Shown: piece after piece, positions 1,358 to 64,000 of the stretch
How positions within the stretch are numbered: the stretch's first letter is position 1
Layout: each line of letters opens with the position of its first letter
Assembly (NCBI GenBank): GCA_944372365.1
Contig: CALVYP010000001.1
Span: 5,427-69,426, forward strand
Direction: 5' to 3'
DNA length: 64,000 nucleotides
Source of the DNA: an uncultured Clostridia bacterium
GTDB lineage: Bacteria; Bacillota; Clostridia; Christensenellales; UBA1242
The notes under the pieces: generated by a model
Seen by the model: only the letters and a program-made list of their open reading frames with translations
Database searches by the model: none
Told to the model about the DNA's origin: nothing
Translations under genes and position numbers: made by a program

Positions 1358-1457
1358 GTTTCCCCCTATTTATTTAATTATAAAAAATAACCGGAGTTAT
1401 GTCAAACAAAAAGCATGCCTCCTCTGTTGAAAACAACAGCTAGTCGCGCTGGCGAAA

Positions 1458-47261: not shown

Positions 47262-47284
47262 AAAAAAACCGACGATGTCGGTTT
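47262..47284 (-). terminator. Intrinsic terminator
   Basis: AAACCGAC-loop-GTCGGTTT hairpin, followed on the minus strand by a T-run (A-run 47262-47268 on the + strand). It overlaps the stop of the 190-aa gene. Confidence 0.6.
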
Positions 47285-47855
47285 ATCTGTCAATTTTTGG
47301 TGGCTGTGATTCCATCACAAGTTGTGCGGCGCTCTTCTTGCTGGATTGAAGCTTATCTTTTGCTTCACGCAACCTTTTATAGCTTAAATCAGCCTCTCTT
47401 TCTGCCATGGCAAGATCATCTTGATATTGCTGGCTGTTTGGATAGCTGTCGCAATAATCTTCCTGCCTGCTTTTACACGCCATGCAGCCTCTGTAATCTT
47501 CTTCCTTGGCCTTTATTTCTTCTTCCAGCGCAAAGATTGATTTAGCATATTCGTCCATAAATTTTTGGTCTTTCACACCAACCACTGCTGCAAGAAAGTT
47601 TATGCTTGCCGCGTCTCTAGCCCGAATAGATTTTAAACAAGATTTGTCGTCGGCATAAAACTTTTGAATGTTTCTTTTAATTTTTAATTTCAAAGCTTGA
47701 AAATCATCTTTCACAAGCTGCCCAAAAAATTCTTTTAATGCGCTTTCGCATCCCGGTGCATCATCAAGCCAAGTTTTTGGCTCTGTCACTTCTTCCATTC
47801 TTAATAATTCTTCCACCCATTCCTTTGGTATAGAATATGCTTCGTCAATGTTCAT
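47283..47855 (-). CDS. Hypothetical protein (190 aa)
   Basis: Intact ORF with SD AGGGGGAG. Acidic and helical, with a Cys cluster (CMACKSRQEDYC). No family recognised. Confidence 0.6.
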   Translation of the reverse strand: MNIDEAYSIPKEWVEELLRMEEVTEPKTWLDDAPGCESALKEFFGQLVKDDFQALKLKIKRNIQKFYADDKSCLKSIRARDAASINFLAAVVGVKDQKFMDEYAKSIFALEEEIKAKEEDYRGCMACKSRQEDYCDSYPNSQQYQDDLAMAEREADLSYKRLREAKDKLQSSKKSAAQLVMESQPPKIDR

Positions 47856-47978: not shown

Positions 47979-48341
47979 ATGCTTGATTTAAAATCAAATT
48001 TAGTTTTAAAAATTTTGCAAAAAGAATGTCGCAATGGTGGATATAAAATCATCGATAAGTCTGACATAATTTCTGCCATGCCTGCAAAGCAACGCGTGGA
48101 TGAAGACGGCTTGGAAAACATAATCACCATTTTAGAAAATAATGAGTGCGTGCATGTGAAATATGATGACGAGCAGGTTTATTGTTTGTGCGTTTTGCCT
48201 GCCAGTGAAAAAATAAACGCAAAGTATGAAAAACAAAAAAAACAAAAACCAACTTTTTGGGTTTTTGCGATTATCTGTTTGTTTTTTTCACTGATTGGTG
48301 GGTTGGTTGGCGCAATTATTGCCAAATTTATAAATTTTTAA
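47979..48341 (+). CDS. Small membrane-anchored winged-helix-like protein (paralogous architecture)
   Basis: 120 aa. Soluble N-terminal domain, basic linker KYEKQKKQK, C-terminal TM helix FWVFAIICLFFSLIGGLVGAIIA. Confidence 0.6.
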   Translation: MLDLKSNLVLKILQKECRNGGYKIIDKSDIISAMPAKQRVDEDGLENIITILENNECVHVKYDDEQVYCLCVLPASEKINAKYEKQKKQKPTFWVFAIICLFFSLIGGLVGAIIAKFINF

Positions 48342-49051
48342 CAGTTTTCAAAAGTTCTATAAAATTCGTTGTTTTTCATTCCAAACACTCCGTCGATTCC
48401 TACAATAATGTGATCAAGCAGCGGAATGCCCAAAGGTTTAAGCATGTCAAGCACAAGGTTTGTTCCATCGACATCGGCTTTTGAAGGCTGCGCCTTACCT
48501 TGTGGATGATTGTGAGCAAGCATAACTATCGCAGGTTTGGCATTGGTGATGAAGTTTAATATTGCATGCATATCAATTCCCACACTTTTAACGCCGCCAA
48601 CCGAAAGTTTAGCTTTGCCTTTGATTCTGCTTGAAGCATCCAAGCCAACGATGTAGGAAGTTTCAACGTTTCTAAATCGCAGCAGCTCTTCAAAGAAATC
48701 GGCAATATCCGTGCGGTAGATGAACTCATATTTTTTATCAAGCGAGCTTGTTGTGTAATAATCAAAAATGTCAACCAGCGCGTGCAGCTTTTTTGCAGAT
48801 GTTTCGCCCATGCCTTTGATGTCTTTTGTCAAGTGCCAGTCGGCATTTAAAACATCGGCGGGAGAGCCAAATTGATCAAGCAGCCTATGCGCGATTTTGT
48901 TTGTGTCGCAACGCGGGAAAACATAGGTTAAAATAAATTCCATGGCAACAATATCACTCATATTTTCGATGCCAGCCTTACAAATTTGATTAAGCAATCT
49001 TTGCCTATGCCCTGCGTGAATGTTTGCTTCATCGTCATTGATTTTTGCCAT
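48338..49051 (-). CDS. radC: RadC-like JAB domain protein
   Basis: 237 aa. JAMM-like motif VMLAHNHPQGKAQPSKADV and an N-terminal HhH-like region. Confidence 0.85.
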   Translation of the reverse strand: MAKINDDEANIHAGHRQRLLNQICKAGIENMSDIVAMEFILTYVFPRCDTNKIAHRLLDQFGSPADVLNADWHLTKDIKGMGETSAKKLHALVDIFDYYTTSSLDKKYEFIYRTDIADFFEELLRFRNVETSYIVGLDASSRIKGKAKLSVGGVKSVGIDMHAILNFITNAKPAIVMLAHNHPQGKAQPSKADVDGTNLVLDMLKPLGIPLLDHIIVGIDGVFGMKNNEFYRTFENC

Positions 49052-49076: not shown

Positions 49077-49105
49077 ATTGTAACAAATTTCAAACTTTTT
49101 CGCAA
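49077..49105 (-). promoter_or_regulatory. Sigma-A promoter of radC
   Basis: The minus strand reads TTGCGA (rc of 49100-49105)-N17-TACAAT (rc of 49077-49082) with an extended -10 TG. Leadered, with SD AGGGGAG. Confidence 0.55.
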
Positions 49106-49151
49106 ACAAAATAGGCGAAATTTTAAAATTTGCAGAAATTTATTTTTTCAA

Positions 49152-49483
49152 AGCGCTATCTCCGCGCAAAATTCAGTTTCTGCGAATATTTACAACTATG
49201 GCATAGTCAAAGCCGGCGATGGTGGCAACGGCCGCCGCGGCGAAGACGGCTGGGGAGGAAGAGATGCTGACAATGGTTATATACCTTCACAAGAAGAGGC
49301 TGCTCAAAATGGCAATGGTAACAACAATCGAACTAGACCAGGATCTTATGAACAAGGCAGCGCTGGAGGACAAGCAGGTGCAGCAGGGATAGCCTATCTA
49401 TATGGCACGCCTAGTGACGGCACTTCCACAACAAGCAACGCAGTGGTGCTTTCAGCTTCCGCTTCCGACGGGACAAAAAATTC
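49152..49483. repeat. Inverted repeat, left arm
   Basis: Reverse complement of 50553-50878 (49176 pairs with 50854). Perfect identity over 49174-49241 and 49263-49417. By eye, about 10 mismatches plus one 6-bp indel (extra GCTTCC near 49461) across ~310 bp. Confidence 0.9.
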
Positions 49484-50003
49484 AGACAGAGTGTTTGATG
49501 CTAACAATGGGAAAGCAGGACCTAAAGGAAATGATGGCTGGGGAGGAGTAAACTTAACCAGATATCATGGGTCAATGACTAATACCGCAAGTATAGCCGA
49601 ATGGTTAACATTCTGGGATGTAAAACCGAATGGGAATAACGACGATAATGATAATAATTCAATATTCATTTTCTCAAGATTTACTTTCACTAATTCAGAT
49701 GCATATCCAAATACAGATATAAATAATAACTTCACTAGTGACGGTAGTTTCTTTGAAAATGGTTGGGATGTGACCAGTACTGCTGGAATTGTTGATGATT
49801 ATATCTTAGAGCGAATAACACCTGAAGGTTATGTTCAGAAAGGTCTAATTACATGGCTTAAATTGTTTATCTCTGTAGAGAATGATGTAAAAAGTGACTC
49901 AACTAAAGTAAGAAGTAATTCTGAACAATACTTCTATGTAACAGAAGGAATAACAAGTGCTATTTGCTATGATTATTCTGCTTTTAACTCAAATACAGAT
50001 TAA
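49152..50003 (+). other. Silent, start-less alternative C-terminal cassette of the giant surface protein gene, in inverted orientation
   Basis: The frame is open from 49077 to TAA 50001-50003 with no ATG, SD or obvious + strand promoter at the 5' end. The first ~110 codons are near-identical to aa ~4350-4458 of the giant ORF. The last ~173 codons are a divergent tail. The track's 49443-50003 ORF (GTG start) is the 3' part of this cassette. Confidence 0.8.
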
Positions 50004-50030
50004 AAAAAACGGCTAAATTTAGCCGTTTTT
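50004..50030. terminator. Bidirectional terminator shared by the expressed and silent C-terminal tails
   Basis: AAAAAACGGCTAAATTTAGCCGTTTTTT: a perfect palindrome flanked by an A-run and a T-run, lying between the two converging stop codons (50001-50003 and 50030-50032). Confidence 0.8.
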
Positions 50031-53000
50031 TATTGTATTGAGCCATATTTATATTGATTATCTTCCATATAATAACCATAACAAGCAGAATCTAAAGGCT
50101 CATTAGTGACATAAAATACTTTTGTTATTCTTTTTATGCTAAGATAATGATTTCCATGCGGACCTCTTCTATATTGAAAAGTAGTCCATGTAATATTCCC
50201 TAATGTTAGTGGCATATTGTTTATCGGATTTATTGTATCGGGATTGCTTCCTCGCCATGGGTCTACACGAGACCAAAAAGACTCTTTAGCATCTGCTGGA
50301 TTTTGTTGAGCATAACCTCCATCATTATCATAATGGTCAAAATAAATATCTCCATAAATAGTAGCTATTCCACTTGATCCATTTAAACCGGCATTTGTAT
50401 AAATAAGATTCCAATTAGATATCATATCCTGTACACTCTTGCCTTCGCCACCCCAAGTTCTGTGATCACCAAATTTAGATAAGTTTAATCCACCCCAACT
50501 ATTGTTGCCTTGTCCACCGGCTATTCCAGGATTAGAATCAAGTTTTATATCGGAATTTTTTGTCCCATCGGAAGCTGAAAGCTCCACTGCATTGTTTGTT
50601 GTGGAAGTGCCATCACTAGGCGTGCCATATAGATAGGCTATCCCTGCTGCACCTGCTTGTCCTCCAGCGCTGCCTTGTTCATAAGATCCTGGTCTAGTTC
50701 GATTGTTGTTACCATTGCCATTTTGAGCAGCCTCTTCTTGTGAAGGTATATAACCATTGTCAGCATCACTTCCTCCACTGCCGTCTGTGCCGCGGCGGCC
50801 GTTGCCACCATCGCCGGCTTTGACTATGCCATAGTTGTAAATATTCGCAGAAACTGTATTTGACGCAGAGATATCACCTGAAATATCTGACAGCGTGATT
50901 GCATGAACATCTTGCCCTTTGCCACCATCATCGCCAGCGTCAGCTCCATCACTGCCGCGCACGCCTATGATTGTGCCATAGTTTGAAATGTCGCCTGCAA
51001 GCGACGACGCCTCTAAACTATATGCGATGCCAGCCATGTCTGCAGAATAGTTTACATTTGAGAACGAAGTATAACTACTTACATTTGTTAAGGTTGAGGC
51101 TGAGTCTATAGCGTGTGCAACACCACCAGCGTTTATAGCCTTTGTAGTTTTTGCAGTTGAAATTGTGCCATAGGTTTTAACATTGTTCAAATTTTTGCTT
51201 ATTGCAACGCTTAAAAGCCCATTGTATGGGAGCTCTTCTGTTGATGCTGTTGTTGCCTCGCCGGTTGAAGGCGGGTCAGCCTTGACAACAGAACCTGCAA
51301 CGTTCAAATCCTTAATCACATTGTTTGTTTCACTGAACAATGCGTCGGATGTTGAATAGAAGTTGACAAAGTAGCCATCGCCAACCAACAAGCCAGTGTT
51401 GCTTGTCGTTGCTATTTGCAGTGTTAGTGTTGTGTCAATGCTGCCAAGATCAATATCCCCGCGTAAAACCACGCCTTTATAATCTGTTCCACCAGTAGAA
51501 AGATCTGATGCTGTATATGAATCATCACTATATTCTTTATACCCTGTAGTGACTGTAAATGTTTTTGCACTAACAGATTTGTCATGGAACGCGTTAAATG
51601 TTACCTCGTTTTCAGATATAGTATAGTCGTCGGCTGTTGCGTTTATGCTACCCAGCGTCACGGTAGGGCCCGAAGCTATATAGCCGGTTGCAGGCACTGT
51701 GATTATAGGAGCGTTGTTGTAAACTCGAAAAATCTCTTGCGCTTCAGAATTTTGACACTTATACTCAAAGTCAATGTATTGATAACTTTCAATCACCACA
51801 GCTGTAGGGGTGTCTCCAGTTGTTTTTACCGTGGCTGTTAATGTGTAAGTGGTTTCATCTCCCGATGTTGTTGAGCTTTCATCTCCCGATGTTGTTGAGC
51901 TTTCATCTCCCGATGTTGTTGAGCTTTCATCTTCTGATGTTGTCGAGCTTTCATCTTCTGATGTTGTCGAGCTTTCATCTTCTGATGTTGTCGAGGTTTC
52001 AGCTTCTGATGTTGTCGAGGTTTCAGCAACTGTCACGGTTACCCCCGTCACCTCTTCGCTTCTGGTTGTAATGTTATAAGTAGTGCCGTCAATGGTGATT
52101 TGATTGTTATTAGTTGTTAAGTTATATTCTGCACCATCTTTGTAAACCTGAATTTCGCCGCTGCTGTCAAAAAGATATAGCAATATTGATGAACCGATTT
52201 TCAGTGCGCCTTGGCTGCCAGAATATTGCTTGCTTAAAGTCAGCGTTCCAGTTGTGCTGTCATAAGCAACAGAGTATTCCTGCCCGCCGATAAGCAGCAT
52301 GTAATTATCGGACACAATTGCCGTTCCGCTTGATGGAGTTAATGTTACAACATCTTCGCCATCGCTTGATGCGGCTACTGAAACTGTGTAAGTTGTGCCG
52401 TTTACTGTAATTTGTTTATTAGCATCAGAAGTTTCCGTTGCATCTTCTTCAATCAAAACAAGCTTGCCTTCATACAATTTGCCTGTCGGCGTTTGACCCG
52501 GCGCAAAATTGCTTTCTTCAACTGTATATGAAACTGAAGTTGCAGAATCTCTCACATACACATCGATCTTATCATCAGTATCATTTGCGAGATCATTTAT
52601 CTCAATTGATACTGTTTTGCTGCTGCTGCTTGTTTGATAATAATTGCCATTTATCACAAATGTATGAAGATCATTGTCTTGCGAAGTAATCGTCGCTGAA
52701 GTTAGTTCATAGGTTGCGGTGCCTGTGTAGTAATAGACTGTTTCATACAGGTATGCTTCATAACCCAAATTCCATTCATCTTCGTCTTCTATGCTTGTTG
52801 CGTCAGCAATTTCACATTCAAGATCTTTCTCTTCCGCGACTGCTTTTTTCGTATAAGTTAATTTTAAAGTAGAACCATCATCGAGAGGAACGCTTTCTGT
52901 ATAAGTTTGCTGATAGTTATATTCAAAAGTCGAATCTTCTGGCCTTGATGAACCGTCTTCATAATTAAACCTTAAAAGCATCGCTGGTATGCCTATTTCA

Positions 53001-56000
53001 ATCCACGTATCAATTTCTATAGGATTATTATCTTCTACTGTGCCTAAATCAACTAAGCGCAAAAGATACGCTGAAAACGATATTTCAGTATAATTATTGA
53101 CATAAGAACTTCCTGTAAGATGTAACTGAGCAACATAAGGGCCAAGATGTCGAACTAGGGGACATACATTGGATTCACTTTTTCCATATAGCCCAAGCTG
53201 CTGCTCTTGTCCTGCTTGAAAACTATTTAAATCTATTGTCTGAAGATAACTACGTATATCATATCCCGCAAAAGGAGCCTGACGATCTAACGGTTGAACA
53301 GAATCCACGTGCCCCCAAACGCGGACAGTATAATTTGCCACAACACTCCACCGATCACTACCAGCGATTATTTCATCATAATTTAGAGTTGGGTCACTTG
53401 CCAATGTAATCTTATTGCTCTCGGTTGGTGTTCCAACTGATAATAGGTTTGGAGCTGCGAAACCCGAGAAAGGCCTTAGCCTTAAGCCTGTGGTTATATA
53501 TGCAAGGTCGGTTGACTCTTGTTTTGTGCCTGTGAAGTCTTTTTCTGCAACATAAGTATAACTATTTCCTAGATAAGAAGTAACGCTCCCCCCTGCATAT
53601 CCTGGAGCGGATGATGAGAAGTGGCTGCCTGCGTTGACATCGATGGTTAATGCCTTGCCATTGAGAGCATTTATAACTTGCTGGGCTGTTTCACCAGCCT
53701 CTATTGTATGCACCAATCTTTGAGCCGCTACTGATGTAAAAGCATATTTTTCAAAAGTGAAGGTGACACCCGGTGTAACTGAAAAGCCTTCCAAATAAAT
53801 TGCAACTATGGCTCCATTTTGCTCTGCAATCAAATTGCTTGAGTTTACTGTGATTGTTTGCTCATCAGTTGCTCTGTTTGCTTTGATTGTATAATTAAAG
53901 CTTGATATGGTTCTTGGATATGTGAAAGTAAGTTTAAGGTTGCTTCCTTGAATAGACGCCGTGCCAGTAACATTTTCTGTTGTGCTTTCAACGCTAAATG
54001 TATAGCCTGCGCTGATAAGCTTTGAAATTTCTACTGAGTTGTTAGAAGCGTCTTTTAATTTGGTGTTGTCGCCATCAACTGGTATGCTTGTAATAAGCGA
54101 AGACGCGTTGACAGTGCTTTTGAAACCAGCAGCATCTTTTACAAAAGCATAGTTTGCTCCTGCGATTGTCACCGTTGTTAAACCATCACTATCAGTAATT
54201 TCAGTCTTACTTATTGAATCTGCTGTTGTTGAGCCCGTTGTCAGTGCCTCGCTTTCATATGTGCTCTCGATTGTTTTCAGATCGGTGTAAATGTCTTGAT
54301 ATCTTGTGACGCTGCTATTCTCACCATACACCATCTTTCTGTTTATTTTTACATAAAACGTTTTTGGCCCGCCAAGAGCATCACGTTCAGCAACAACTAC
54401 TGTAGCATCGTCCTTGTCTTCGTCGTCTTTTGCAACACTGATTGTAATACCATTTACTTCTCCCCATTTCACTCCGCTTGGAAGAGAGCTTCCAGTAACT
54501 TCCATTGTTACTAAACCAAAGTTTCCGTTTTGATAAGCGCTGCCTGATTTGTTCCCTACATTAGAAATTGTTTTGTCACTATTTATCGATATTGTGCTGG
54601 CATAAACGTTTCTGCTATCATCATTCCCAAATCCAAAGGAGCCACTGAAAGTTACATCGCCGTTGTCGTCAGCAACTGTTGGAGCTGGCGTTGTAATTGT
54701 GCCGCTATAATTTTGACCAAGAGCTTCAATATAGCCCTCATTAGAACAATCTGAGGCCGCTCCATTAGCAACAATACCGGCTGCGTAAGAGGCTGAGGTG
54801 TTTGATTTGTGCCCCGCCTTAACCATTGAAGTGTTGTAGCAATCTTCAACTTCTGTTGCCGTGCCTGCAATTCCGCCGGCATAATATGAGCCATTAGTTG
54901 TTACGGTATAACCGTTGAATACGGTGTTTTCGTTGCCAGACTCTGTAATCTTTTTTGCCTGTCCGGCAATTCCGCCAACATAGCCGCCTGCTGAGTTTAC
55001 AGTGATTGGTGAATAGTTATAGCAATTTGTTATCAAGTTGCCGCCTTCATTTGGCAAAGATCCAATAATGCCGCCAACGTAAAGACCATCACCATCTGCT
55101 GTGATTGCAACATAGTTTTTACAGTTTGAAATTTGAGCACCTGCAACGCCTTCTGCAAACAATCCGCCTATTTTTGAACCATCGTCTGCGCCTGTTGCTT
55201 TCAATGTTCCAGAAGCAATAACATTTTCTGCCTTTGTGTTAATTTCTCCTGCAACAACTGCGTTGCCAGTAGTAACTTCTGCATTGGTAACTCTTAAATT
55301 TTGAATTGTGCCAGCAGAACTAAACAAGGTTGCTTTAATAAGCCCGTTTATTGTGTGGCCATCGCCATCAAATGTTGCATTGTTTGAAACTGCAGTCCAC
55401 TCATCAGCAAAACTTGTTTTCGATAAATCAATATCGCGCACGAGTTTATAATTATTGTCATCCGCGCCATCCGCGCCATCCGCGCCTTCCTCGCCAATTT
55501 GCGCGAGTTTGGTTACATTTGGAATTAAGTAATATGTTGTGCCGCTCACTTCTTCAGTGGTTGAAACATTAAACGCTGCAAAATTGCGTGTTGGATAGCC
55601 ATAGTTAAATGCAATGTTTTGTTTCCAGCCGACATCAAATGTTACGTCTTCTGAATTTGAGTATGACAATGTGTATACTTTCTCACTTTCACTTAAAGTT
55701 GCAGTGCTGGTTGACTCAGCGCTTATGTTTTCCGCGCTTGCGCCAACATTCTCTTGAGTCTCTGTTGAATCGCCGTCATACCAGTTGCCGATAGTGCTGC
55801 AGTCTTCGTGTTTCGCTGCGCTGCCAAACACGCCAGTTGTGCCGCCGACAGTCTCTTGCGTGTAGTCTTTCAAGCTTACGCGGCTGATTGCATAGCTGTC
55901 GCGCACGGTTGCGCCAGTGCCGTTTGTGAACGCATAAAGATTGGCGGAGATGTAAGAATTAACTTCGCCTGTTGCATAAACCTTGTCAAAGAAGTTGTTT

Positions 56001-59000
56001 GTGCCAGTTGTCACTGCTATGCCTGCAGCTGTTGCAGAGCCAACGGTTGTGGCAGCCGTTGTGGCAGTGGTTTCTGGAGCTTTCGCTGCACGATAAACAA
56101 GCTTAACTGACGATGTGCTTTCTGCAATCAATCCGCCATTCATCCTGCCAACCAAGCCGCCGATGTCTTTTGTTGTGCTTCCGCCAACTGAAAGCGTGCC
56201 GGTTGACATGCTTGCATAAATTATGCCGCCGTTAAGCTCATGCACTAAGCCGCCAACAATGGTTGGGTCGTCAAAGTTCTCACTTGTATCTTTATAATCG
56301 TTATTAACCACAAGCCCAGCAACAAAACTATGCGCGCCAACAGTTGAAATTTCCTTAGTTTTCACTGCAAAGTCGCCGATGTAGGCAAAAGGCATGCTGT
56401 TTGTCTCGCCCGGTTGAGTTTGCGTTGCATCCGCTGATGCAGCCGGTGGATAAACGCCAGCATAGTATACTATGCCGTTGGTATTGTCGGCTGCAGTATT
56501 ACTTCCAGTTACTGGGTTAAGTTTAGAGCCAAACCCTTCTGATGATACATAGGCTTCTAAAAGATCTACCATAGAGTTGCTAGAACCGGTTTCACCATAA
56601 CCTTTATCCATGTTTCCCGTATAATAGCCTATATCATATGAAGACTCATCATCAGTAACCGCAAGAACAAGCTGTGAAGAATAATAGTTGTTTACTGTGT
56701 CGACTTCATCCGTATTTCCAACAAGTGCGCTGGTTTTATGCTCGGTTGAAGCCATGCGTGGGTTGTTGTTTGTGAAAGCGATGATGTTGCTCTCCAAATT
56801 CATTAAATTTGTTGTTGTGGTGGTTTCGCCGTTTGTGGTTGTAGTTGCTGCTGGCCCAGTGCCTATAATTCCGCCAAAGTAATAATTATCTAAAGCAGCA
56901 TCTTCATTATAAGTGTAAATTGCGTCGCCGTAATTTACTGTGCCCGTCACACTTATTTGCTGCACAACATCTTTTCCTGCTGCATTGCCAATCATGCCGC
57001 CGACCTTGTGCGTAACGGCGCTGTCAACATAAAATTTGAATGCCCCGCCAAACACAGCATATGAAATTGATTTTGCGCTGGTGTCTGTGGATTGATTCAA
57101 AGAGCCAATCATTCCACCTGCGTTAACCGCGCCTGCTGTTTGAATAAAGTAGTTTGATGACACATTGACAACGACGCTTGAATTGTCTTTTTCGCCAAGC
57201 ATTGTTGTGTCTGCCGAATTGTCATTGCCTATCACTCCGCCAATGTCGAGTGTGCCGTTTTCATCGGTTACTTCGATTACTTCAATGTTGTTGGATGTAA
57301 AGTTTAAAACTGTAAGCGCGCCTGTGTTGCTGCCAACCAAGTCGCCCGAACAAGCATTTTCGCCGCTGAAGGCTACAAAATGGTCGCCACCCATATTGAA
57401 TTTGTTGCCGCCTTCCACACTTGCATTTAAAGTTACATTTGCTGCGTTTATGCCAATAAACCCACCAAACTTTAAGTTGCCAGTTGTCGAAACTAAATTG
57501 TTTGAAAAATCTGTTGCAGTGAATTCCGTTTTGTCTAATGTTGGTTTATCGTCGTTGAACACATCAAGCGCCACTTCCACATCTTGAACGGTGATTGTTG
57601 CTTGGTTGCTGCCAATCAACCCGCCGATTGCTGGAGAGTTTAATGTTCCATCGGTTTTTATGTTGCCGCCAACGCTTAAGCCAGATTCAACGCAATTTTC
57701 GCCTGTTGCGATGTTAAACGCGCCCTGTGTTTCACCAAACAGCAAGCCGATTGTAGGATTTTCAATTGTGAAGTCTCCAACTTCAACATCGGTTGAAATT
57801 GTTGTTTTGTTGTTGGTTATGTTTTCAAAAGCAAAGTTTTGCAGGTTTACACTGCCAACAATGCCGCCGATTATTGCATTGTAGTTTACTTCATCCACCT
57901 GCTTTGTGGCAGGTGTGTTAGTGTTGTCACTTGCGGCCTCTATGTTTATAGCAACATTCAATTTCATGGTGTGTGAGATTTCATTGTCGGTGACATATGT
58001 AAATGTTGCATTCTGTGAACTAACCTCACCAAAGAATCCGCCAGCATACAACCTGCTGATTGAAGGTGACGTTTGCTGTTCTGTGCCCGCATTTGATGTT
58101 GCTTTTGTTTGCTCTGCTGTAGTTTTTGCCTGACCAGCGATGTTGATTGCAGAGACTAATGACTTGGTTTCATCAGCCGCGCCTTCTGGAAGTTGCGGCG
58201 TTTTAACTTCAATCACCATGCCAGCATAGTTTTCTACCACATCGCTTGAGGTGTCGTCTTCATCGCTTTCGTCTTCATCAGTTCCATTGCTTAATTCAAA
58301 GTTTTCTGCCAGTCTGCCGGCATACAACCCTGCATAAACTGGGCCTTCTGTGTCTTCTGAAATATTTGCTTGCATGATGCTGCAGTCAGCTGCCGTGTTT
58401 GAATGTTTGATTGTGATGTCTTGAATTCTCAGCGATTCAAAAATAGAATTTTGTGAGATCGCACCCGCCAACAATCCTACATATAAAGTGTCAGCGGTCG
58501 CAGTAAACTCAATAAAGTTTAAACCTGACTCAGACAAGCTGTAAGCGAAAATGATTTCTATATTTCTAAATGATGTGTTTACGCCACCCGGAACAAGCAA
58601 CCCGGCTTGATTGCCTTGTGCGTTTATTTTAATTTGTTGGCGCAGATAAACTTTAACGCCTTCAATTTTAGCGTCAGTTACAACCGAGTTGGAAATTATG
58701 CCGCCGGTGAATGGATCAAGCTCGCCATCATCTTCCGCTTTCTCCACAACAATGTTAAGATTTTCAATTCTAAGCCCCGAGCCTGTTACGCCTAAAATTG
58801 ACCTGTCTATAATCAACCCTGGATAGCCCGAGCCTGCTGCTTCAGCTGTTTCGCCATAGTAGAGACCCGACACAATTGATGGAGGCTCGCCCCAATCGGC
58901 AGTTGTTGAATAGCCTACAATCGTGCCAGAGAAGCCTTCAACAGGAAGCAGATCCGAATACTCGCGCAAATCAATCATGCCATATTGGCCTTCAACATTG

Positions 59001-62000
59001 TTGTATTTCCCTCTTACTCTAACTTCAATAGAAGAGTCACGCATTCTGTCAAGCACAACTTCAATGTTGTCTTGATCGAGATAAACATAGTTTACAGTGT
59101 TTACAAAGTTGATTTCTGGATAAAGCGTGCCTGTTGTGTGAATCCAGTTTTCGCTGCTCCATGCCCTTGAGTTGATGAACGCACCATTTGTGCTGGTGAA
59201 GCCATCTTCTTGTGAAATATAATTTGAAACTGATGTGATTGAAAAGTAGAAGTCATAATCAGAGACATCTGCGCTCCATCCTTCATAAGGCTTAATTGAA
59301 ATTTTAATGTCGCCCGATTGATAAACATCCATATAGCCGAATGATTTTAGTGACGAAACTTCGGTTGAAGTTGAGCCTTCGGCATCACTGATTGCCACTG
59401 CTGACGGCATAACTGTGATTTTTGCCATGTCTTTTATAATGCCCGCAACGGCATAGAACGTGCCATCATTAGGCGTTTCATCGCTTTGAGAATAGTAAGG
59501 GTTGGTTAAAACGCCATAGTGGTTGAACGCGTTAACCGATGACATAACAAGGCTTACATTTTCTTCAAGCACCCCAAACAATCCGCCAAAAGCATGGCTG
59601 TCGCTTTGAACTAGCCCATAAGAAACACCATCCTTATCATAACTATATTCTCCGCCATAAGCGAAAACATCACCTATTGCATAAACTTCTTGCAGATAAA
59701 GGTTTGTTGTAACTCTTGGCTGATTTGCATTTGCGTTGTTATCCAAATAATAGCTGTTGCCTGCAATCACTGCGCCTGCTATGCCGCCTGCAAACGAAAC
59801 ATCTTGCGTTGTGTAGTTGATTGCGTTAAGTTTGCTGTAACCAACATAGATTGTTCCAGAACCCATAACACCCATCAAGCCGCCAACATATTTTGGATAG
59901 TAGCGATATTCGCCTTCGCCTTCTTGACCTGTGTATTTAAACAAATCAAGCACGCCGCGCTCTGTTTCAAGATTTTTAGATAAATAATAATTGCTTGTTG
60001 TGCTTTCAATGGCCTCTTGAACCGACCCTTCATGCTCGGCATAAACTTGATAGAATGATCCGTTTGCCAAACCAACAAGCCCGCCTGCGAAATAGTTGTA
60101 TGAAAGAATGCTTGCATAGGTGTCTTCACCTTTTGCAACTTTAATGCCAACATCCTGAACTTTTGTTTGATAGCCAGTGTAGCCAAACACACCGCCTGCA
60201 ATTTCACCACGAACATCCACTGACCCCTGTGTGAGAAGCTGCGTTACAAGATAGTCAAGCGCAGTGTGACCATTGTAAACATAGCCTGTATAGAAGGCTT
60301 CAAGTGATGTGTAAACATCCAAATATCCTACAATTCCGCCCGCAAATGAAACGCTGCCAATGCCGCCGTTTTGCAAATCGTTTGAATAGAACGTGTTTAT
60401 GTTTTGGCGCTGGCTGTTTCTTATTGCGGTTGGGTTAAAGCCTTGCCTATAAAGCATGCTGCCAAGCGAGCTTACATTTGTGGAAGCATTGTCGTCATAA
60501 TATGATGCTTGAACAATCACATCGTTGACTGTAAGCCCGTTTAATCTGGTTTCGCCAAACGCTGCACCAATTATGCCGCCCGCTATGTTTTTGCCAAGCA
60601 CTCCTGCACCAGACGAAGCTTCGTCCGCTTCATTTTGAGTGAGATTGATGTTGAAAATTGTTGAATCCTGTGCCAATCCAGTAAGCCCACCAACAACATA
60701 GGAGTTTGATGCGGTAACGTTATCCACCATCAAATCAAGGTTTTTGATGATTGCATTTTGCGTTTGCCCAAACAAACCAACCGAATTGTTTGATGAACGA
60801 ATTGAAATATTGTTTACAGCAAAGCCGTTTCCGTCTAAAATGCCGGTGAATTTTTTATCTATGGATTGCACTTCAGCATTTCCATGCTCGTCATTAAGCT
60901 GAGAAAGATCTATGTCGCCAACAAGTCTGTAAGCGCCAAAAACTTCTGTGCTGTTAAAGAACATACTGATAAATGTTGATGTAGATTCGCCCATCGCATT
61001 TCTAAAATCGATGGCAGATGTAATTAAAATTGGGTTTACATCACTGCCATATGCAGTGTTGTATCTTGGAGCAGATGGGTTGAGTGAATTTTCCAAAATA
61101 GCATATGGCAACGAATAGATTTCTTCATCGTTAGGATCTGCAACATAATATCTGTGGCTTATTGTCACAGTCTGGGTGCACACAAGCCTTGGCCCATATG
61201 GGCTTTGCATCCACACGCCGTCTTCCAACGAATTTTCACTTGCAAACATAAAGCCGTAGTAAGCATTTGTGCCAGTGATTTCGTTTTTATCAATCAGTGT
61301 TGCTTGATTTGAAACTGCTTTTTGAACATCGCTGACCATATCATCGTTGTAATCTTCATTGATATAATAAGAAAGTTCAATTGTCCCAGTGTTTAAGCTT
61401 ACGCCGTTTTTAACACCCGAAAAACCAAGTTGCAACAAGTCTGCCATCAAAACATATGATGCCGACAACGAAGTTTGAATAAGCCCTTCGTTTTTGTATA
61501 CAAAGCCTGCGCTTGTTCGGCTTTTAATTTCATTTGGATTGTAAATTTCGATGTTTGAATAGCCGTTTGAAACCACGCCTGTGGTTGTGTTGTTTACAAC
61601 AAATCCTGCCACGATGCCGCTTGAAATAATGTTTGTGTCTCTAAAATGTGCAAGAACGCTTTGTGAATCGTTTGCTAAATCATCGTTTTCGCCAGCGCCT
61701 TCAATATAGCTGTTTCTAATTTCGCCTGAGTTGTCAACTGCAAAACCACCTGTTTGGCTGTTTGTAAGCGAAGCTTTGTTGGTGATTTGAACATTTTTAA
61801 CTCCTGACGAAGCAATTTCACCTGAGTTTGTAACAACAAACCCTGCAATTTCACCTTGCGCCGAAATTACAAAGTTGCCAAGTTCCACAGTTGAATAGTT
61901 TGTGCGGTTTGTATCCAAAACCTGCTCACCAATCACAATAATCTCGTCGCCGCCAACCTTGCTGTTGGTGATGCTGCCCGTGTTTGTGATTACAAACCCT

Positions 62001-64000
62001 GCCACATTGCTGGTGATAGAAGTGTCACCAATATAGTAAGGCGTTGAGCCCTTCCTATAATTAACAATCAGCCCTACATCGCCGGTTTGAACGGTTGTAT
62101 TTTGATATTCATAAGCCACAACTTCGCAGTTTGTGATTATGCCGCTGTTGGTGATTGCAAAGCCTGCAATATTTATTGCATTGAAGCCAGTTGAAGTGGT
62201 ATCTACATCAATTTTTCCGCCAGTGTAGTAGTTTACTTTAATGTTTTTCATAATTGAGGTGGCAGGCACATCGGTGAAAAGCGCCAAGTTTAAAGTGCCC
62301 GACCCTTGTGTGTTGAATGACTGGATGTGAATTGTGTGTCCGTTGCCATCCAAGCTTTTAAAGTTTGCTGCTGAAATTGGGGTGTAGTTTTGAAGATATA
62401 TATCGTTAAGCAATATATAGTCTTGTGCAGTGCCTTCGTTTGCAACCTGCAAAAAGTCTTCTGCACTTTCAATAAGCAGTGGCAAATCTTGATCGGAGTA
62501 AACTTCAACTTGCACTGCAAATCGAGTGCTGATTGTGTAAGACACATCTCTTCCCGCACTTTTAAGCGAAATTTCATCACGCATTTCAATTTGAATTGGA
62601 TTTGCCGTGGTGACAAGCCCAAGCACTGAAAGAACTCCGTCGCCGTTTTCAGTTTGCCTGTAAGTCAAGCGGAAGTTTACATTGGAATATGTCAACTCGC
62701 CGTTATCTGTCTTATCAAATTTTAATTGTTGGTTGTTGTAGTAAAGCCTTTGATAAATAGGAATTGCTTCACCCTTATCATTATAGTTGATTTTAAATGA
62801 TTTATCATTTGATATATAACTCTTCTCTTCTGCAAACTTATCTCTTGCTTCATACAATGCGTTTGCCAACGCGGTTTGAGTTTCATCTGAATTGTCATAA
62901 GCATAGGTTGTTGGATTGAAAGTGTAATCAAAATCAAGCACAACCGGAATGCCGATGTATGCGCTGACAACATCCATGCCTAAATCTTGATTATAGGTTG
63001 CCTCTTGCACTCTTGCCGATTGCGGTAAGAAATCTACAATGGTGACATAGGCGTAAGAAGTTTTAATCTCCTGCACACCATTAAGAATTCTGGAAACCTG
63101 AGCTTTAACATTAAACACGCCGTTTATTGCATTATCGCCATCTATTACACCAGCGTCAAGGTTTGCATAAAGGTTTGCGATAAGTGTTTTTGTGCCGTTT
63201 TGATGGTCTATTGTTTGCCATGTATTGCGTGGTGAAATTGTGATGCCTTTTGTGTTTTCTGGAATAAGAGAATCAAGTGTTTGATCTTCTCTTAGCAAAA
63301 TTGAAAGCTGCAAATTGCCGCCTTTTGCAACCATGGCGCTTATCTCACCATTTATGGTTATTTCAGCTTCTGGCAAGAATGAAATGAAAAGTTGATAGGT
63401 TTGTGTTGCGCCTTCAATTGGCTGGCCGTTTTCATCATAGAATGTTGCAACCATGTTGAAAGTTGTATCCTGCGGAATATTGCCAGCTGCAGTAAGCCTG
63501 AATGCGAAATAGCCATCACTTACTCTGCCAACTTTAACGCCTTGCACTTCATCATATGAAACATTAGACGAATTGTCGACAACATATTGTTGATAATTTT
63601 CTCCATACCTGTTCATCTTGGTGATGCCAAGCACTGCGCCATCGTTGTTTTGATAGGTTAAAGTCATGTATTCATAGTAAGCAAAAGAAGGATCTATATA
63701 TATTTCCATAATAGAGCTTCTGCCCGGTGAAAGCACCGAGACAGCTTCATCTGTTCTGCTGTAAATGTTTACACCATTGCTTGAAGAAGTTGTGCCGCCC
63801 CTATAATTTGAAATGTCAATGCGATTGATAGGTTGGCTGGTTAAAGTCAGCCCCAATTTGCTGTTTTCTTTGTCGGTTGTGCCAGAGATGGAAGATATTT
63901 CAAGCGTGTATTGCTCATTTTGCATGATAGATGAACGATAGCCTTCTGCTATGGAAATCGTTAAAACATATGAAATTGTTGCGCTGTCTTCATCCCATGA
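50030..64000 (-). CDS. Giant GLUG-motif surface protein of more than 4,656 aa, N-terminus beyond the window
   Basis: The track starts it at the Met at 63925. The 25 codons upstream to nt 64000 (SWDEDSATISYVLTISIAEGYRSSI) contain no stop, so the gene is 5'-truncated by the window. Many repeats of the type IAGFAITNSGIITNCEV, VAGFVITNTGSITNSKVGG, GGLTGLAQDSTIFN, FAGGLVGLANGSFYQVY. No LPXTG. Confidence 0.9.
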   Translation of the reverse strand, partial: SWDEDSATISYVLTISIAEGYRSSIMQNEQYTLEISSISGTTDKENSKLGLTLTSQPINRIDISNYRGGTTSSSNGVNIYSRTDEAVSVLSPGRSSIMEIYIDPSFAYYEYMTLTYQNNDGAVLGITKMNRYGENYQQYVVDNSSNVSYDEVQGVKVGRVSDGYFAFRLTAAGNIPQDTTFNMVATFYDENGQPIEGATQTYQLFISFLPEAEITINGEISAMVAKGGNLQLSILLREDQTLDSLIPENTKGITISPRNTWQTIDHQNGTKTLIANLYANLDAGVIDGDNAINGVFNVKAQVSRILNGVQEIKTSYAYVTIVDFLPQSARVQEATYNQDLGMDVVSAYIGIPVVLDFDYTFNPTTYAYDNSDETQTALANALYEARDKFAEEKSYISNDKSFKINYNDKGEAIPIYQRLYYNNQQLKFDKTDNGELTYSNVNFRLTYRQTENGDGVLSVLGLVTTANPIQIEMRDEISLKSAGRDVSYTISTRFAVQVEVYSDQDLPLLIESAEDFLQVANEGTAQDYILLNDIYLQNYTPISAANFKSLDGNGHTIHIQSFNTQGSGTLNLALFTDVPATSIMKNIKVNYYTGGKIDVDTTSTGFNAINIAGFAITNSGIITNCEVVAYEYQNTTVQTGDVGLIVNYRKGSTPYYIGDTSITSNVAGFVITNTGSITNSKVGGDEIIVIGEQVLDTNRTNYSTVELGNFVISAQGEIAGFVVTNSGEIASSGVKNVQITNKASLTNSQTGGFAVDNSGEIRNSYIEGAGENDDLANDSQSVLAHFRDTNIISSGIVAGFVVNNTTTGVVSNGYSNIEIYNPNEIKSRTSAGFVYKNEGLIQTSLSASYVLMADLLQLGFSGVKNGVSLNTGTIELSYYINEDYNDDMVSDVQKAVSNQATLIDKNEITGTNAYYGFMFASENSLEDGVWMQSPYGPRLVCTQTVTISHRYYVADPNDEEIYSLPYAILENSLNPSAPRYNTAYGSDVNPILITSAIDFRNAMGESTSTFISMFFNSTEVFGAYRLVGDIDLSQLNDEHGNAEVQSIDKKFTGILDGNGFAVNNISIRSSNNSVGLFGQTQNAIIKNLDLMVDNVTASNSYVVGGLTGLAQDSTIFNINLTQNEADEASSGAGVLGKNIAGGIIGAAFGETRLNGLTVNDVIVQASYYDDNASTNVSSLGSMLYRQGFNPTAIRNSQRQNINTFYSNDLQNGGIGSVSFAGGIVGYLDVYTSLEAFYTGYVYNGHTALDYLVTQLLTQGSVDVRGEIAGGVFGYTGYQTKVQDVGIKVAKGEDTYASILSYNYFAGGLVGLANGSFYQVYAEHEGSVQEAIESTTSNYYLSKNLETERGVLDLFKYTGQEGEGEYRYYPKYVGGLMGVMGSGTIYVGYSKLNAINYTTQDVSFAGGIAGAVIAGNSYYLDNNANANQPRVTTNLYLQEVYAIGDVFAYGGEYSYDKDGVSYGLVQSDSHAFGGLFGVLEENVSLVMSSVNAFNHYGVLTNPYYSQSDETPNDGTFYAVAGIIKDMAKITVMPSAVAISDAEGSTSTEVSSLKSFGYMDVYQSGDIKISIKPYEGWSADVSDYDFYFSITSVSNYISQEDGFTSTNGAFINSRAWSSENWIHTTGTLYPEINFVNTVNYVYLDQDNIEVVLDRMRDSSIEVRVRGKYNNVEGQYGMIDLREYSDLLPVEGFSGTIVGYSTTADWGEPPSIVSGLYYGETAEAAGSGYPGLIIDRSILGVTGSGLRIENLNIVVEKAEDDGELDPFTGGIISNSVVTDAKIEGVKVYLRQQIKINAQGNQAGLLVPGGVNTSFRNIEIIFAYSLSESGLNFIEFTATADTLYVGLLAGAISQNSIFESLRIQDITIKHSNTAADCSIMQANISEDTEGPVYAGLYAGRLAENFELSNGTDEDESDEDDTSSDVVENYAGMVIEVKTPQLPEGAADETKSLVSAINIAGQAKTTAEQTKATSNAGTEQQTSPSISRLYAGGFFGEVSSQNATFTYVTDNEISHTMKLNVAINIEAASDNTNTPATKQVDEVNYNAIIGGIVGSVNLQNFAFENITNNKTTISTDVEVGDFTIENPTIGLLFGETQGAFNIATGENCVESGLSVGGNIKTDGTLNSPAIGGLIGSNQATITVQDVEVALDVFNDDKPTLDKTEFTATDFSNNLVSTTGNLKFGGFIGINAANVTLNASVEGGNKFNMGGDHFVAFSGENACSGDLVGSNTGALTVLNFTSNNIEVIEVTDENGTLDIGGVIGNDNSADTTMLGEKDNSSVVVNVSSNYFIQTAGAVNAGGMIGSLNQSTDTSAKSISYAVFGGAFKFYVDSAVTHKVGGMIGNAAGKDVVQQISVTGTVNYGDAIYTYNEDAALDNYYFGGIIGTGPAATTTTNGETTTTTNLMNLESNIIAFTNNNPRMASTEHKTSALVGNTDEVDTVNNYYSSQLVLAVTDDESSYDIGYYTGNMDKGYGETGSSNSMVDLLEAYVSSEGFGSKLNPVTGSNTAADNTNGIVYYAGVYPPAASADATQTQPGETNSMPFAYIGDFAVKTKEISTVGAHSFVAGLVVNNDYKDTSENFDDPTIVGGLVHELNGGIIYASMSTGTLSVGGSTTKDIGGLVGRMNGGLIAESTSSVKLVYRAAKAPETTATTAATTVGSATAAGIAVTTGTNNFFDKVYATGEVNSYISANLYAFTNGTGATVRDSYAISRVSLKDYTQETVGGTTGVFGSAAKHEDCSTIGNWYDGDSTETQENVGASAENISAESTSTATLSESEKVYTLSYSNSEDVTFDVGWKQNIAFNYGYPTRNFAAFNVSTTEEVSGTTYYLIPNVTKLAQIGEEGADGADGADDNNYKLVRDIDLSKTSFADEWTAVSNNATFDGDGHTINGLIKATLFSSAGTIQNLRVTNAEVTTGNAVVAGEINTKAENVIASGTLKATGADDGSKIGGLFAEGVAGAQISNCKNYVAITADGDGLYVGGIIGSLPNEGGNLITNCYNYSPITVNSAGGYVGGIAGQAKKITESGNENTVFNGYTVTTNGSYYAGGIAGTATEVEDCYNTSMVKAGHKSNTSASYAAGIVANGAASDCSNEGYIEALGQNYSGTITTPAPTVADDNGDVTFSGSFGFGNDDSRNVYASTISINSDKTISNVGNKSGSAYQNGNFGLVTMEVTGSSLPSGVKWGEVNGITISVAKDDEDKDDATVVVAERDALGGPKTFYVKINRKMVYGENSSVTRYQDIYTDLKTIESTYESEALTTGSTTADSISKTEITDSDGLTTVTIAGANYAFVKDAAGFKSTVNASSLITSIPVDGDNTKLKDASNNSVEISKLISAGYTFSVESTTENVTGTASIQGSNLKLTFTYPRTISSFNYTIKANRATDEQTITVNSSNLIAEQNGAIVAIYLEGFSVTPGVTFTFEKYAFTSVAAQRLVHTIEAGETAQQVINALNGKALTIDVNAGSHFSSSAPGYAGGSVTSYLGNSYTYVAEKDFTGTKQESTDLAYITTGLRLRPFSGFAAPNLLSVGTPTESNKITLASDPTLNYDEIIAGSDRWSVVANYTVRVWGHVDSVQPLDRQAPFAGYDIRSYLQTIDLNSFQAGQEQQLGLYGKSESNVCPLVRHLGPYVAQLHLTGSSYVNNYTEISFSAYLLRLVDLGTVEDNNPIEIDTWIEIGIPAMLLRFNYEDGSSRPEDSTFEYNYQQTYTESVPLDDGSTLKLTYTKKAVAEEKDLECEIADATSIEDEDEWNLGYEAYLYETVYYYTGTATYELTSATITSQDNDLHTFVINGNYYQTSSSSKTVSIEINDLANDTDDKIDVYVRDSATSVSYTVEESNFAPGQTPTGKLYEGKLVLIEEDATETSDANKQITVNGTTYTVSVAASSDGEDVVTLTPSSGTAIVSDNYMLLIGGQEYSVAYDSTTGTLTLSKQYSGSQGALKIGSSILLYLFDSSGEIQVYKDGAEYNLTTNNNQITIDGTTYNITTRSEEVTGVTVTVAETSTTSEAETSTTSEDESSTTSEDESSTTSEDESSTTSGDESSTTSGDESSTTSGDETTYTLTATVKTTGDTPTAVVIESYQYIDFEYKCQNSEAQEIFRVYNNAPIITVPATGYIASGPTVTLGSINATADDYTISENEVTFNAFHDKSVSAKTFTVTTGYKEYSDDSYTASDLSTGGTDYKGVVLRGDIDLGSIDTTLTLQIATTSNTGLLVGDGYFVNFYSTSDALFSETNNVIKDLNVAGSVVKADPPSTGEATTASTEELPYNGLLSVAISKNLNNVKTYGTISTAKTTKAINAGGVAHAIDSASTLTNVSSYTSFSNVNYSADMAGIAYSLEASSLAGDISNYGTIIGVRGSDGADAGDDGGKGQDVHAITLSDISGDISASNTVSANIYNYGIVKAGDGGNGRRGTDGSGGSDADNGYIPSQEEAAQNGNGNNNRTRPGSYEQGSAGGQAGAAGIAYLYGTPSDGTSTTNNAVELSASDGTKNSDIKLDSNPGIAGGQGNNSWGGLNLSKFGDHRTWGGEGKSVQDMISNWNLIYTNAGLNGSSGIATIYGDIYFDHYDNDGGYAQQNPADAKESFWSRVDPWRGSNPDTINPINNMPLTLGNITWTTFQYRRGPHGNHYLSIKRITKVFYVTNEPLDSACYGYYMEDNQYKYGSIQ
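50553..50878. repeat. Inverted repeat, right arm (inside the giant ORF)
   Basis: See the left arm. The 155-bp perfect core is 50613-50767. Confidence 0.9.
51853..52028. repeat. 24-bp in-frame tandem repeat (about 7.3 copies) inside the giant ORF
   Basis: The unit TTTCATCTCCCGATGTTGTTGAGC occurs 3 times, TTTCATCTTCTGATGTTGTCGAGC 3 times, then a TTTCAGCTTCTGATGTTGTCGAGG variant. It encodes ETSTTSEDESSTTSED...ESSTTSGD. Confidence 0.9.
55461..55487. repeat. 9-bp tandem repeat, 3 copies, inside the giant ORF
   Basis: TCCGCGCCA, TCCGCGCCA, TCCGCGCCT, encoding GADGADGAD. Confidence 0.8.

Follow-up and report, generated by a model that had tools for sequence, protein, structure and literature searches.

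Results

An inverted copy of the 3' end of a giant gene

Does a gene whose last coding stretch recurs, inverted, just beyond its own terminator exchange its 3' end by DNA inversion, and if so, what drives the exchange? The question is raised by a locus in a 64,000-nucleotide stretch of DNA from an uncultured Clostridia bacterium (contig CALVYP010000001.1, positions 5,427 to 69,426 of the forward strand), which we call the window. Its minus strand carries the 3' part of a giant gene (50030-64000, open to the window edge, 4,656 aa here) that encodes a constant protein body, and its plus strand carries a spare, inverted copy of the end of that gene. On balance, we think it probable that this is a switch with two states, in which a giant surface protein, lipid-anchored at its N-terminus, exchanges C-terminal cassettes through general homologous recombination.

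A repeat search of the window returned inverted arms at 49157-49461 and 50569-50873 (305 nt, 96% identity), a match too long and too close to be a chance pairing, with a weaker extension at 49457-49563 and 50473-50579 (107 nt at 71%). Aligned base by base, the left arm (49157-49483, plus strand) is the reverse complement of the right arm (50553-50873, minus strand), with base p pairing with base 100030-p, so that 49176 pairs with 50854. Two runs are perfect, 49174-49241 (68 bp) and 49263-49417 (155 bp); the remaining differences are one 6-bp indel and about 10 mismatches of the types G/A, A/C, T/A, G/T, and C/T, and both outer ends lose identity. The placement, perfect runs, pairing, and indel all agree with a first-pass annotation made from the sequence, whose quoted translations were also correct. 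The right arm forms the end of the constant coding sequence in the expressed gene, and the left arm is a 5'-truncated copy of it. Each contains a conserved motif that we call box 1 (NYGIVKAGDGGNGRRG), at 50836-50789 in the right arm and 49194-49241 in the left. The same arrangement was assembled independently from another sample, on the 253-kb contig of locus L001.

The arms are 1,069 nt apart and enclose a predicted invertible segment, 49484-50552, that contains two divergent gene ends facing each other. The expressed tail A (50033-50552, minus strand) has 172 aa, begins IKLDSNPG, and stops at 50030-50032; the silent tail B (49484-50003, plus strand) has 171 aa, begins RVFDANNG, and stops at 50001-50003. 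A second conserved motif, box 2, reads GNNSWGGLNL in tail A (50509-50480) and GNDGWGGVNL in tail B (49527-49556). The tails are 21.5% identical, and these two are the only copies of the variable domain in the window. Their stop codons lie 26 nt apart, and both tails converge on one bidirectional terminator (50004-50031, both strands), a 12-pair hairpin with an A-run on one side and a T-run on the other, halfway along the segment. Divergent tails on one shared terminator had been noted in the first-pass annotation, and the analysis bore this out. The space between the tails holds a 26-nt terminator and no gene.

The spare copy is an inverted, promoterless version of the last ~280 codons of a lipoprotein gene of ~6,300 residues. 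On the plus strand, its frame stays open from 49077 up to the stop codon (50001-50003). The match to the giant gene sets in abruptly at ~49157, with >4,350 codons missing; the preceding leader (49077-49156, plus strand) is nonhomologous, has no start codon, ribosome-binding site, or plus-strand promoter-like site, and differs in translation between species without conservation. The sole in-frame start codon ahead of tail B is a GTG at 49443, 122 codons into the frame and without a Shine-Dalgarno sequence. The sole promoter-like site in the spacer between the cassette and the neighboring radC-like gene faces radC (minus strand, 49105-49077) and overlaps the cassette leader. With the addition of the single GTG, these results uphold the first-pass description of a copy that lacks an ATG, Shine-Dalgarno sequence, and promoter.

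Inversion is predicted to exchange the tails in frame

The first-pass annotation also held that inversion would fuse the silent tail to the giant gene in frame. Simulating inversions at five crossover points gave, each time, an intact 4,657-aa open reading frame (ORF) that ended in tail B, and the simulated inversions also put tail A into the silent frame. The frame is preserved because the indel between the arms is of 6 bp.

Comparison with related loci suggests how such a switch would be organized. In all 11 loci scanned, the arms are centered on box 1 (..NIYNYGIVKAGDGGNGRRG..); box 2 (..RGNDGWGGLNL..) is the second conserved motif, directly before the tail, and we call the stretch between the two boxes region 1. 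Arms measure 305-400 nt in the window and 71-148 nt elsewhere, and this difference arises because cassette pairs do or do not have region 1 in common. A symmetric hairpin terminator separates both cassettes in 10 of the 11 loci, other species included. In the model that we propose, about 6,000 constant residues would lie outside the switch, as would the promoter and the signal peptide, and segment 49484-50552 would comprise two convergent alternative tips and one bidirectional terminator. The arms would be one coding stretch present in both orientations, as the end of the constant gene on one side and as an untranslated, 5'-truncated copy on the other. A crossover anywhere in the arms would then invert the segment, fusing the spare tip in frame and parking the former tip in the silent site. 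A crossover at box 1 would swap region 1 together with the tail, while only the tail would be swapped by a crossover at box 2 or, where the cassettes have region 1 in common as they do in the window, inside that region.

The giant gene is complete in the near-identical L001 contig, where it encodes a 6,339-aa product, and full-length homologues have 6,131-6,372 aa and start with a lipobox signal peptide (e.g. MKSKVSKFFVALISTFLLFGGAFFTAC|G). Because this signal peptide is N-terminal, the variable tip would be at the end farthest from the membrane anchor. We retain the first-pass label of surface protein as a prediction for which the lipoprotein signal peptide in the full-length homologues is the sole support. 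The giant protein and its tails gave no match to a Pfam, NCBIfam, or PHROG family or to a PDB sequence, and BLAST of the giant protein against itself for internal repeats gave nothing useful. The family is small: searched with a profile, 1.84 billion representative proteins yielded 39 members, namely four full-length giants, a few fragments, and, for the rest (about 30), spare cassettes called as ORFs. About 330 codons upstream of the switch, the giant gene also contains approximately seven tandem 24-nt units (window 51829-52056, minus strand; SSTTSGDE/SSTTSEDE). In L002 this region has a different length, and it may be a second, slippage-type source of variation.

The framework residues G-N-x-x-W-x-G-x-N-L, a late Y, and a C-terminal SAxC motif are invariant across tails, which suggests that tails A and B have a common fold. 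AlphaFold2 models of the two C-terminal regions were of low confidence (predicted local distance difference test scores of 56.6 and 58.9) and agreed in one respect only, an all-beta tail with the same strand order. Foldseek comparison of the tip models with PDB and BFVD returned no match below E = 0.1. Of the shared receptor-binding fold raised in the first-pass annotation, structure prediction recovered a common strand order, and the assignment of a fold failed.

The same cassette occupies either site among strains

If the segment inverts, a cassette that is expressed in one strain should be found as the spare in another. To compare loci, we used the radC-like JAB-domain gene that adjoins the spare copy (48338-49051, minus strand; Pfam PF04002) as a synteny anchor, without presupposing any role for it in the mechanism. 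The gene order uvrA-uvrB-(two small ORFs)-orf120-radC-[cassette ->][terminator][<- giant gene] is conserved, and the arrangement of radC, cassette, terminator, and opposing giant gene is present in at least four species-level lineages. In related loci, the radC-like gene is always the immediate outer neighbor of the spare cassette. The evidence on orientation comes from contigs assembled from short reads, and some arms are longer than the assembler k-mer. The contigs of L003-L006, L008, and L009 end in the radC-side arm, and those of L011 and L019 end at the terminator. With these data, the flipped state anticipated by the first-pass annotation was found within the window's own species (species 1, with flanks 98.3-98.6% identical) and in two others.

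The one case that looks reciprocal is in species 1. In L007, the giant gene finishes with tail D, and E occupies the spare site. The 700-nt D-terminator-E stretch is found again in L030 at 99.0% identity, there inverted relative to the radC flank: the flank and leader lead into an arm, the inverted D-terminator-E follows, and D adjoins radC. Three further samples contain the L030 D junction at 100% identity, and in them an intact E runs outward through the other arm. Simple gene conversion does not account for the difference between L007 and L030 because conversion would not preserve D. The pair looks like what would be expected from a reciprocal swap of the whole segment. In four independent samples (L030 3868-3995, and L031-L033), the D cassette next to radC is degenerate: a 128-nt arm runs, out of frame, straight into the latter half of box 2, and a GC-rich microhomology marks the fusion point. 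The L030 leader, in addition, carries an 89-nt deletion bordered by ATAG.

Other cassettes change position in a similar way. Tail F of species 1 is expressed in L034 and is the spare in L010. In species 2, L019 consists of the radC flank of L020 (97.1%), a 111-nt arm, and the expressed arm and tail of L020 in inverted orientation (97.0%), while L026 expresses a region 1 that is spare in L020 (97.3%, 329 nt). An artefact of the assembly graph is unlikely for L019 and L020 because their perfect arm runs do not exceed 31 nt, below common k-mers. In species 4, L027 carries as its spare, in inverted form, the cassette that L025 expresses (95.8%, 693 nt), and these two loci are on contigs of 402 and 366 kb, respectively.

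The arms exchange sequence

Ongoing exchange between the arms, suggested in the first-pass annotation by a perfect core within diverged flanks, is borne out by a comparison of the window with L001. The two are identical at 20,709 of 20,714 nt. All five differences fall in a patch of the spare arm (49242-49262, plus strand), and at each of them L001 has the base of the expressed arm. The expressed arm of L001 is the same as that of the window, and the perfect run between the arms lengthens in L001 to 244 bp. Because every difference matches the opposite arm, we conclude that the arms have exchanged sequence by gene conversion; judged from the alignment, the patch is a short, nonreciprocal conversion tract between otherwise identical strains. 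Mosaics in the population also break at box 2 and inside region 1: P0003/L034 joins region 1 of L010 to the tail of L002, and P0056 has region 1 as in the spare copy of L007 but a different tail.

Several features of the locus point to RecA-type recombination rather than a dedicated invertase. The arms are long (71-400 nt), vary in length between strains, and coincide with conserved protein motifs; moreover, there are conversion tracts, mosaic arms, and several breakpoints, and no recombinase lies within about 10 kb of any of the loci. We infer from these that exchange probably depends on RecA. We also presume that inversion, rather than some other form of exchange, is the usual route, that it would be frequent enough to give mixed populations, and that the tip may act in binding or as an antigen.

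Cassettes show constraint, transfer between species, and decay

For the species-4 cassette that differs in site between L025 and L027, the ratio of nonsynonymous to synonymous substitution rates (dN/dS) is 0.15, and its synonymous divergence (dS 0.118) is close to that of radC (dS 0.122). These values indicate that selection on the protein persisted while the cassette changed site. In most silent cassettes, the ORF is intact and retains the invariant residues of the family.

Tail B shares 96.8% nucleotide identity with the spare tail of L011 (10619-11095), a locus from a different species whose uvrB and radC differ from those of the window with dS of about 1. Such identity, despite this divergence, indicates that tail B moved horizontally in the recent past. 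Of the 17 differences between the two copies, 16 are nonsynonymous and one is synonymous, and 13 involve adenine in one copy. We note that the 16:1 ratio is not significantly off neutrality by a rough binomial estimate (p about 0.11); diversifying selection on tail B is possible, with numbers too small for proof. A relative of tail A (53% identical) occupies the silent site of L019, in another lineage, and a spare tail of species 2 (P0007) recurs, frameshifted, in species 3 (L028). Spare copies evidently decay while parked.

Genomic context

The window is chromosomal, with uvrA, uvrB, the radC-like gene, htrA, rpoB, rpoC, and dapB among its genes. Relatives with the locus are labeled as uncultured Clostridia or Firmicutes metagenome-assembled genomes, and one contig comes from the Hadza human gut; a scan of Joint Genome Institute (JGI) metagenomes contributed two further loci only. 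No recombinase or reverse transcriptase domain was detected by Pfam in the window ORFs scanned, in agreement with the earlier statement that the window has no invertase, or in the Pfam lists for about +/-10 kb of 12 related loci. The small conserved neighbors (120, 190, and 119 aa) include no recognizable recombinase, and the 190-aa neighbor (47283-47855) has no Pfam or NCBIfam match.

We considered and rejected three other origins for the locus. A phage origin is unsupported: no relative was found in viral contigs, the setting is chromosomal (rpoB, rpoC, uvrA, uvrB), and the one PHROG match (E = 0.0096 with a 4,655-aa query) is not meaningful. A diversity-generating retroelement does not fit because the arm mismatches are of all types and not adenine-specific, and the window has no reverse transcriptase domain. 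Finally, an orphan module of a polymorphic toxin (contact-dependent inhibition or Rhs type) is contradicted by the lack of an immunity gene, the inverted orientation, and the framework residues shared by the tails.

The window contains further large genes. A second orphan giant ORF (21511-31710, minus strand, 3,399 aa) has no Pfam or PHROG match and lies directly downstream of a gene for a 910-aa ATPase (31720-34452, minus strand) with TraG P-loop, DUF87/HerA, and FtsK-like domains; the giant ORF is located between rpoB/rpoC and a PRC-barrel protein. The pair could be a secretion or transfer ATPase and its giant substrate. At the start of the window (2-1369, minus strand), a further lipoprotein gene extends past the edge; the N-terminal part that it encodes here has BspA-type leucine-rich repeats and an InlB B-repeat-like domain. 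The organism appears to be rich in large surface proteins.

Discussion

We have described a locus at which the end of a giant gene and an inverted spare copy share long coding arms and a terminator, and at which, among relatives, the same cassette is found in either site. A number of observations weigh against a homology-driven switch. No flipped counterpart of the window's own A/B pair was found: the three assemblies of this exact strain (the window, L001, and L002) all have tail A in the expressed site, and a collection of 5.8 billion proteins contained no stand-alone tail-A ORF of the kind expected of the flipped state. The orientations were compared between the assembled contigs of different strains. 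In some strains, perfect arm runs of 99-244 nt exceed typical k-mers, so that orientation by de Bruijn assembly rests on read pairs, and six of 10 radC contigs stop inside the arm. In the L030 strain, the expressed E state is deduced from contigs that end in the arm, and the silent D copy is degenerate. Most strain pairs are not clean reciprocal swaps, in that the second cassette differs too; because it mostly differs, conversion combined with replacement could mimic some exchanges of position. The spare copy is absent from four relatives (L013, L015, L016, and L017) and has decayed in others, as a deletion remnant in L026, by a frameshift in L028, and by truncation in L012. Lastly, the arms of several strains have perfect runs of 19-48 nt, which is marginal for efficient recombination by RecA.

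This last point bears on an alternative in which the switch is the same but a distant "master invertase" acts on a short core inside box 1, the long homology being a by-product. Arms that in most strains shrink to 71-148 nt around box 1, with perfect runs this short, would be a poor substrate for RecA; a 21-nt stretch of box 1 (GGCATAGTCAAAGCCGGCGAT/C) is nearly invariant, synonymous sites included, in genomes with a cassette, while three cassette-less relatives (L013, L015, and L016) encode the same peptide, GIVKAGDGG, with different, AT-richer codons; and distant invertases are known in gut bacteria, with the Mpi family among the enriched neighbors of inversion loci (PMC9881135). We nevertheless regard a distant invertase as unlikely: no recombinase was found in the 64-kb window or in the roughly 10 kb on either side of 12 related loci, mosaic breaks at box 2 and in region 1 show exchange not limited to one site, and the conversion tract at 49242-49262 is outside the conserved 21-mer. 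The synonymous conservation could equally stem from the transfer of cassettes between species. In their own right, the GC-rich box 1 codons of cassette carriers are a mark either of DNA-level constraint on a recombination site or of homogenization by transfer. Improbable, too, in our judgment, is the absence of any programmed inversion, with an inverted partial duplicate that undergoes occasional conversion or horizontal replacement and whose differences in orientation are accidents or choices of the assembler. Such a duplicate would persist because inverted repeats, unlike direct ones, escape deletion, and the sole event resolved to the base level is a nonreciprocal conversion. The scarcity of reciprocal pairs, the decayed silent copies, the clear horizontal movement of tail B, and the inability of short-read assemblers to orient a segment between perfect inverted repeats longer than k would all follow. 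What conversion alone does not need is a geometry this precise and kept across species, with truncation at the start of homology, convergent tails, and a terminator at the midpoint. Against it stand also the inversion of the D-E segment as a unit between L007 and L030 with D retained, the short perfect runs of L019 and L020, the long contigs of L025 and L027, and the purifying selection on a species-4 cassette that is silent in one strain.

Two further accounts were weighed. Gene callers place ORFs of 130-300 aa on spare cassettes in many genomes, including an automated call of 186 aa on the plus-strand copy, which could then be an independent small gene expressed alone. This is highly improbable. 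Starts have been assigned arbitrarily to internal GTG, TTG, or ATG codons, which depend on the strain (MVLSAS.., MKAGDGG.., MNLSKY..); spare cassettes have no Shine-Dalgarno sequence, promoter-like site, or signal peptide; and every such start lies downstream of the point where the match to the giant gene sets in, while the leaders are not conserved. An assembly chimera or collapsed duplicate, conceivable for a metagenome-assembled genome with arms longer than typical k-mers, is scarcely credible, given that the structure was assembled independently in a different sample with only five differences and that homologous structures with different cassettes are present in >15 contigs from many studies and assemblers. 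We therefore continue to favor a two-state switch driven by general recombination. A bolder version, which we offer only tentatively and consider rather less likely than not to hold in full, is a recombinase-free, homology-programmed, and horizontally shared diversification of a giant fiber tip, in which boxes 1 and 2 serve as conserved "splice boxes." General recombination would then both flip the spare tip in and reassort region 1 and tail independently, and tip cassettes of other species would be taken up from a shared pool of >30 tip types.

If the switch operates in living populations, an uncultured lineage of Clostridia from the human gut could change the outermost domain of its largest surface protein, the part most exposed to hosts, phages, and neighboring cells, while the other ~6,000 residues are left untouched. 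The locus adds an orphan protein family to the catalog of genes targeted by inversion and is a candidate case of inversion that general recombination drives with no invertase nearby. The drive is probably independent of a recombinase, and, as far as sequence comparison can tell, the protein family is new and its tip cassettes traffic between species that are saturated at synonymous sites of housekeeping genes. There is also a warning for annotation: with short-read contigs from many samples ending in the radC-side arm or at the central hairpin, public metagenome-assembled genomes of this clade will often lack the locus or misorient it. An orientation derived from short reads may be arbitrary, and the usual annotation of a spare cassette is a small hypothetical protein.

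Comparison with known systems

The first-pass annotation likened the locus to the Mu and P1 tail-fiber segments and to the R64 shufflon. The Mu G and P1 C segments, inverted by the serine invertases Gin and Cin, swap C-terminal parts of tail-fiber proteins. Like the locus described here, they keep a constant N-terminal part outside and two opposed C-terminal parts inside the segment, giving a two-state distal tip; unlike it, they have an invertase gene, an enhancer, a phage context, and crossover sites that are themselves 26-34 bp long where the locus has long homologies, and the Mu accessory gene U/U' has no analogue beside tails A and B. No PF00239-type or other recombinase match was found in the window ORFs or the related flanks, and the repeats are 71-400 nt of variable coding homology, in which box 1 may hide a short core comparable to the ~26-bp imperfect palindromic sites of serine invertases. 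The type IV pilin Q/I inversion of Moraxella bovis and M. lacunata uses Piv, and the R64 shufflon uses Rci. In both, as here, the C-terminal part of a surface protein is exchanged and the N-terminal part stays, but both have dedicated adjacent recombinases and short specific sites, and R64 has several nested segments, whereas our locus has one segment and the window no tyrosine recombinase. The likeness to Mu, P1, and R64, and to the Moraxella pilin switch, is one of logic and does not extend to an invertase, a multisegment shufflon, or, barring a core inside box 1, a short crossover site.

Other systems resemble the locus in other respects. Neisseria pilE/pilS and Borrelia vlsE also have promoterless, partial reservoir copies bounded by conserved motifs, with conversion tracts and mosaics. 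Unlike them, the locus here has a single cassette, found in every case inverted and convergent on a terminator that both tails use, and its tails change places whole, where those systems copy small patches. In likely enzymology, the locus resembles the inversion of the sap S-layer genes of Campylobacter fetus, which is largely recA-dependent, although it lacks defining features of each of these families. There too, the target is a chromosomal surface protein, long inverted coding repeats are the substrate, and general recombination is implicated. In sap, however, the conserved repeats are 5' ends and the promoter is on the invertible element, moving between whole genes; at the window locus, about 95% of the gene stays in place together with the promoter (the gene start is >13 kb upstream, outside the invertible segment), and the 3' ends and shared terminator would invert. 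C. fetus has 8-9 sap cassettes, and the window locus has one spare. The recA link of the sap inversion is mentioned in PMC5634654.

The nearest class is that of the gene-altering programmed inversions, for which Milman, Yelin & Kishony (2023; PMC9881135) predicted >11,000 loci, found via within-species rearrangement; Chanin et al. (2023; bioRxiv 10.1101/2023.03.11.532203) name them "partial intergenic invertons" or shufflon-like systems. The window locus differs from typical members in having no adjacent recombinase, although recombinases are strongly enriched beside such loci (PMC9881135), in having arms that are hundreds of nucleotides of coding homology, and in being known from short-read assemblies. 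It has all four of the predictive attributes of the class: a long inverted repeat, a short distance between coding sequences, matching orientation, and gene-pseudogene asymmetry, which is extreme here in length. Orientation variants within species are seen as well, though not for the window's A/B pair. The targets listed for the class (HsdS, tail fibers, SusC, PilV, Type II restriction-modification, and others) do not include a giant lipoprotein, which fits under "hypothetical protein." Taken together, these comparisons support the assignment of the locus to the known class of gene-altering programmed inversions, to which it would bring a new protein family.

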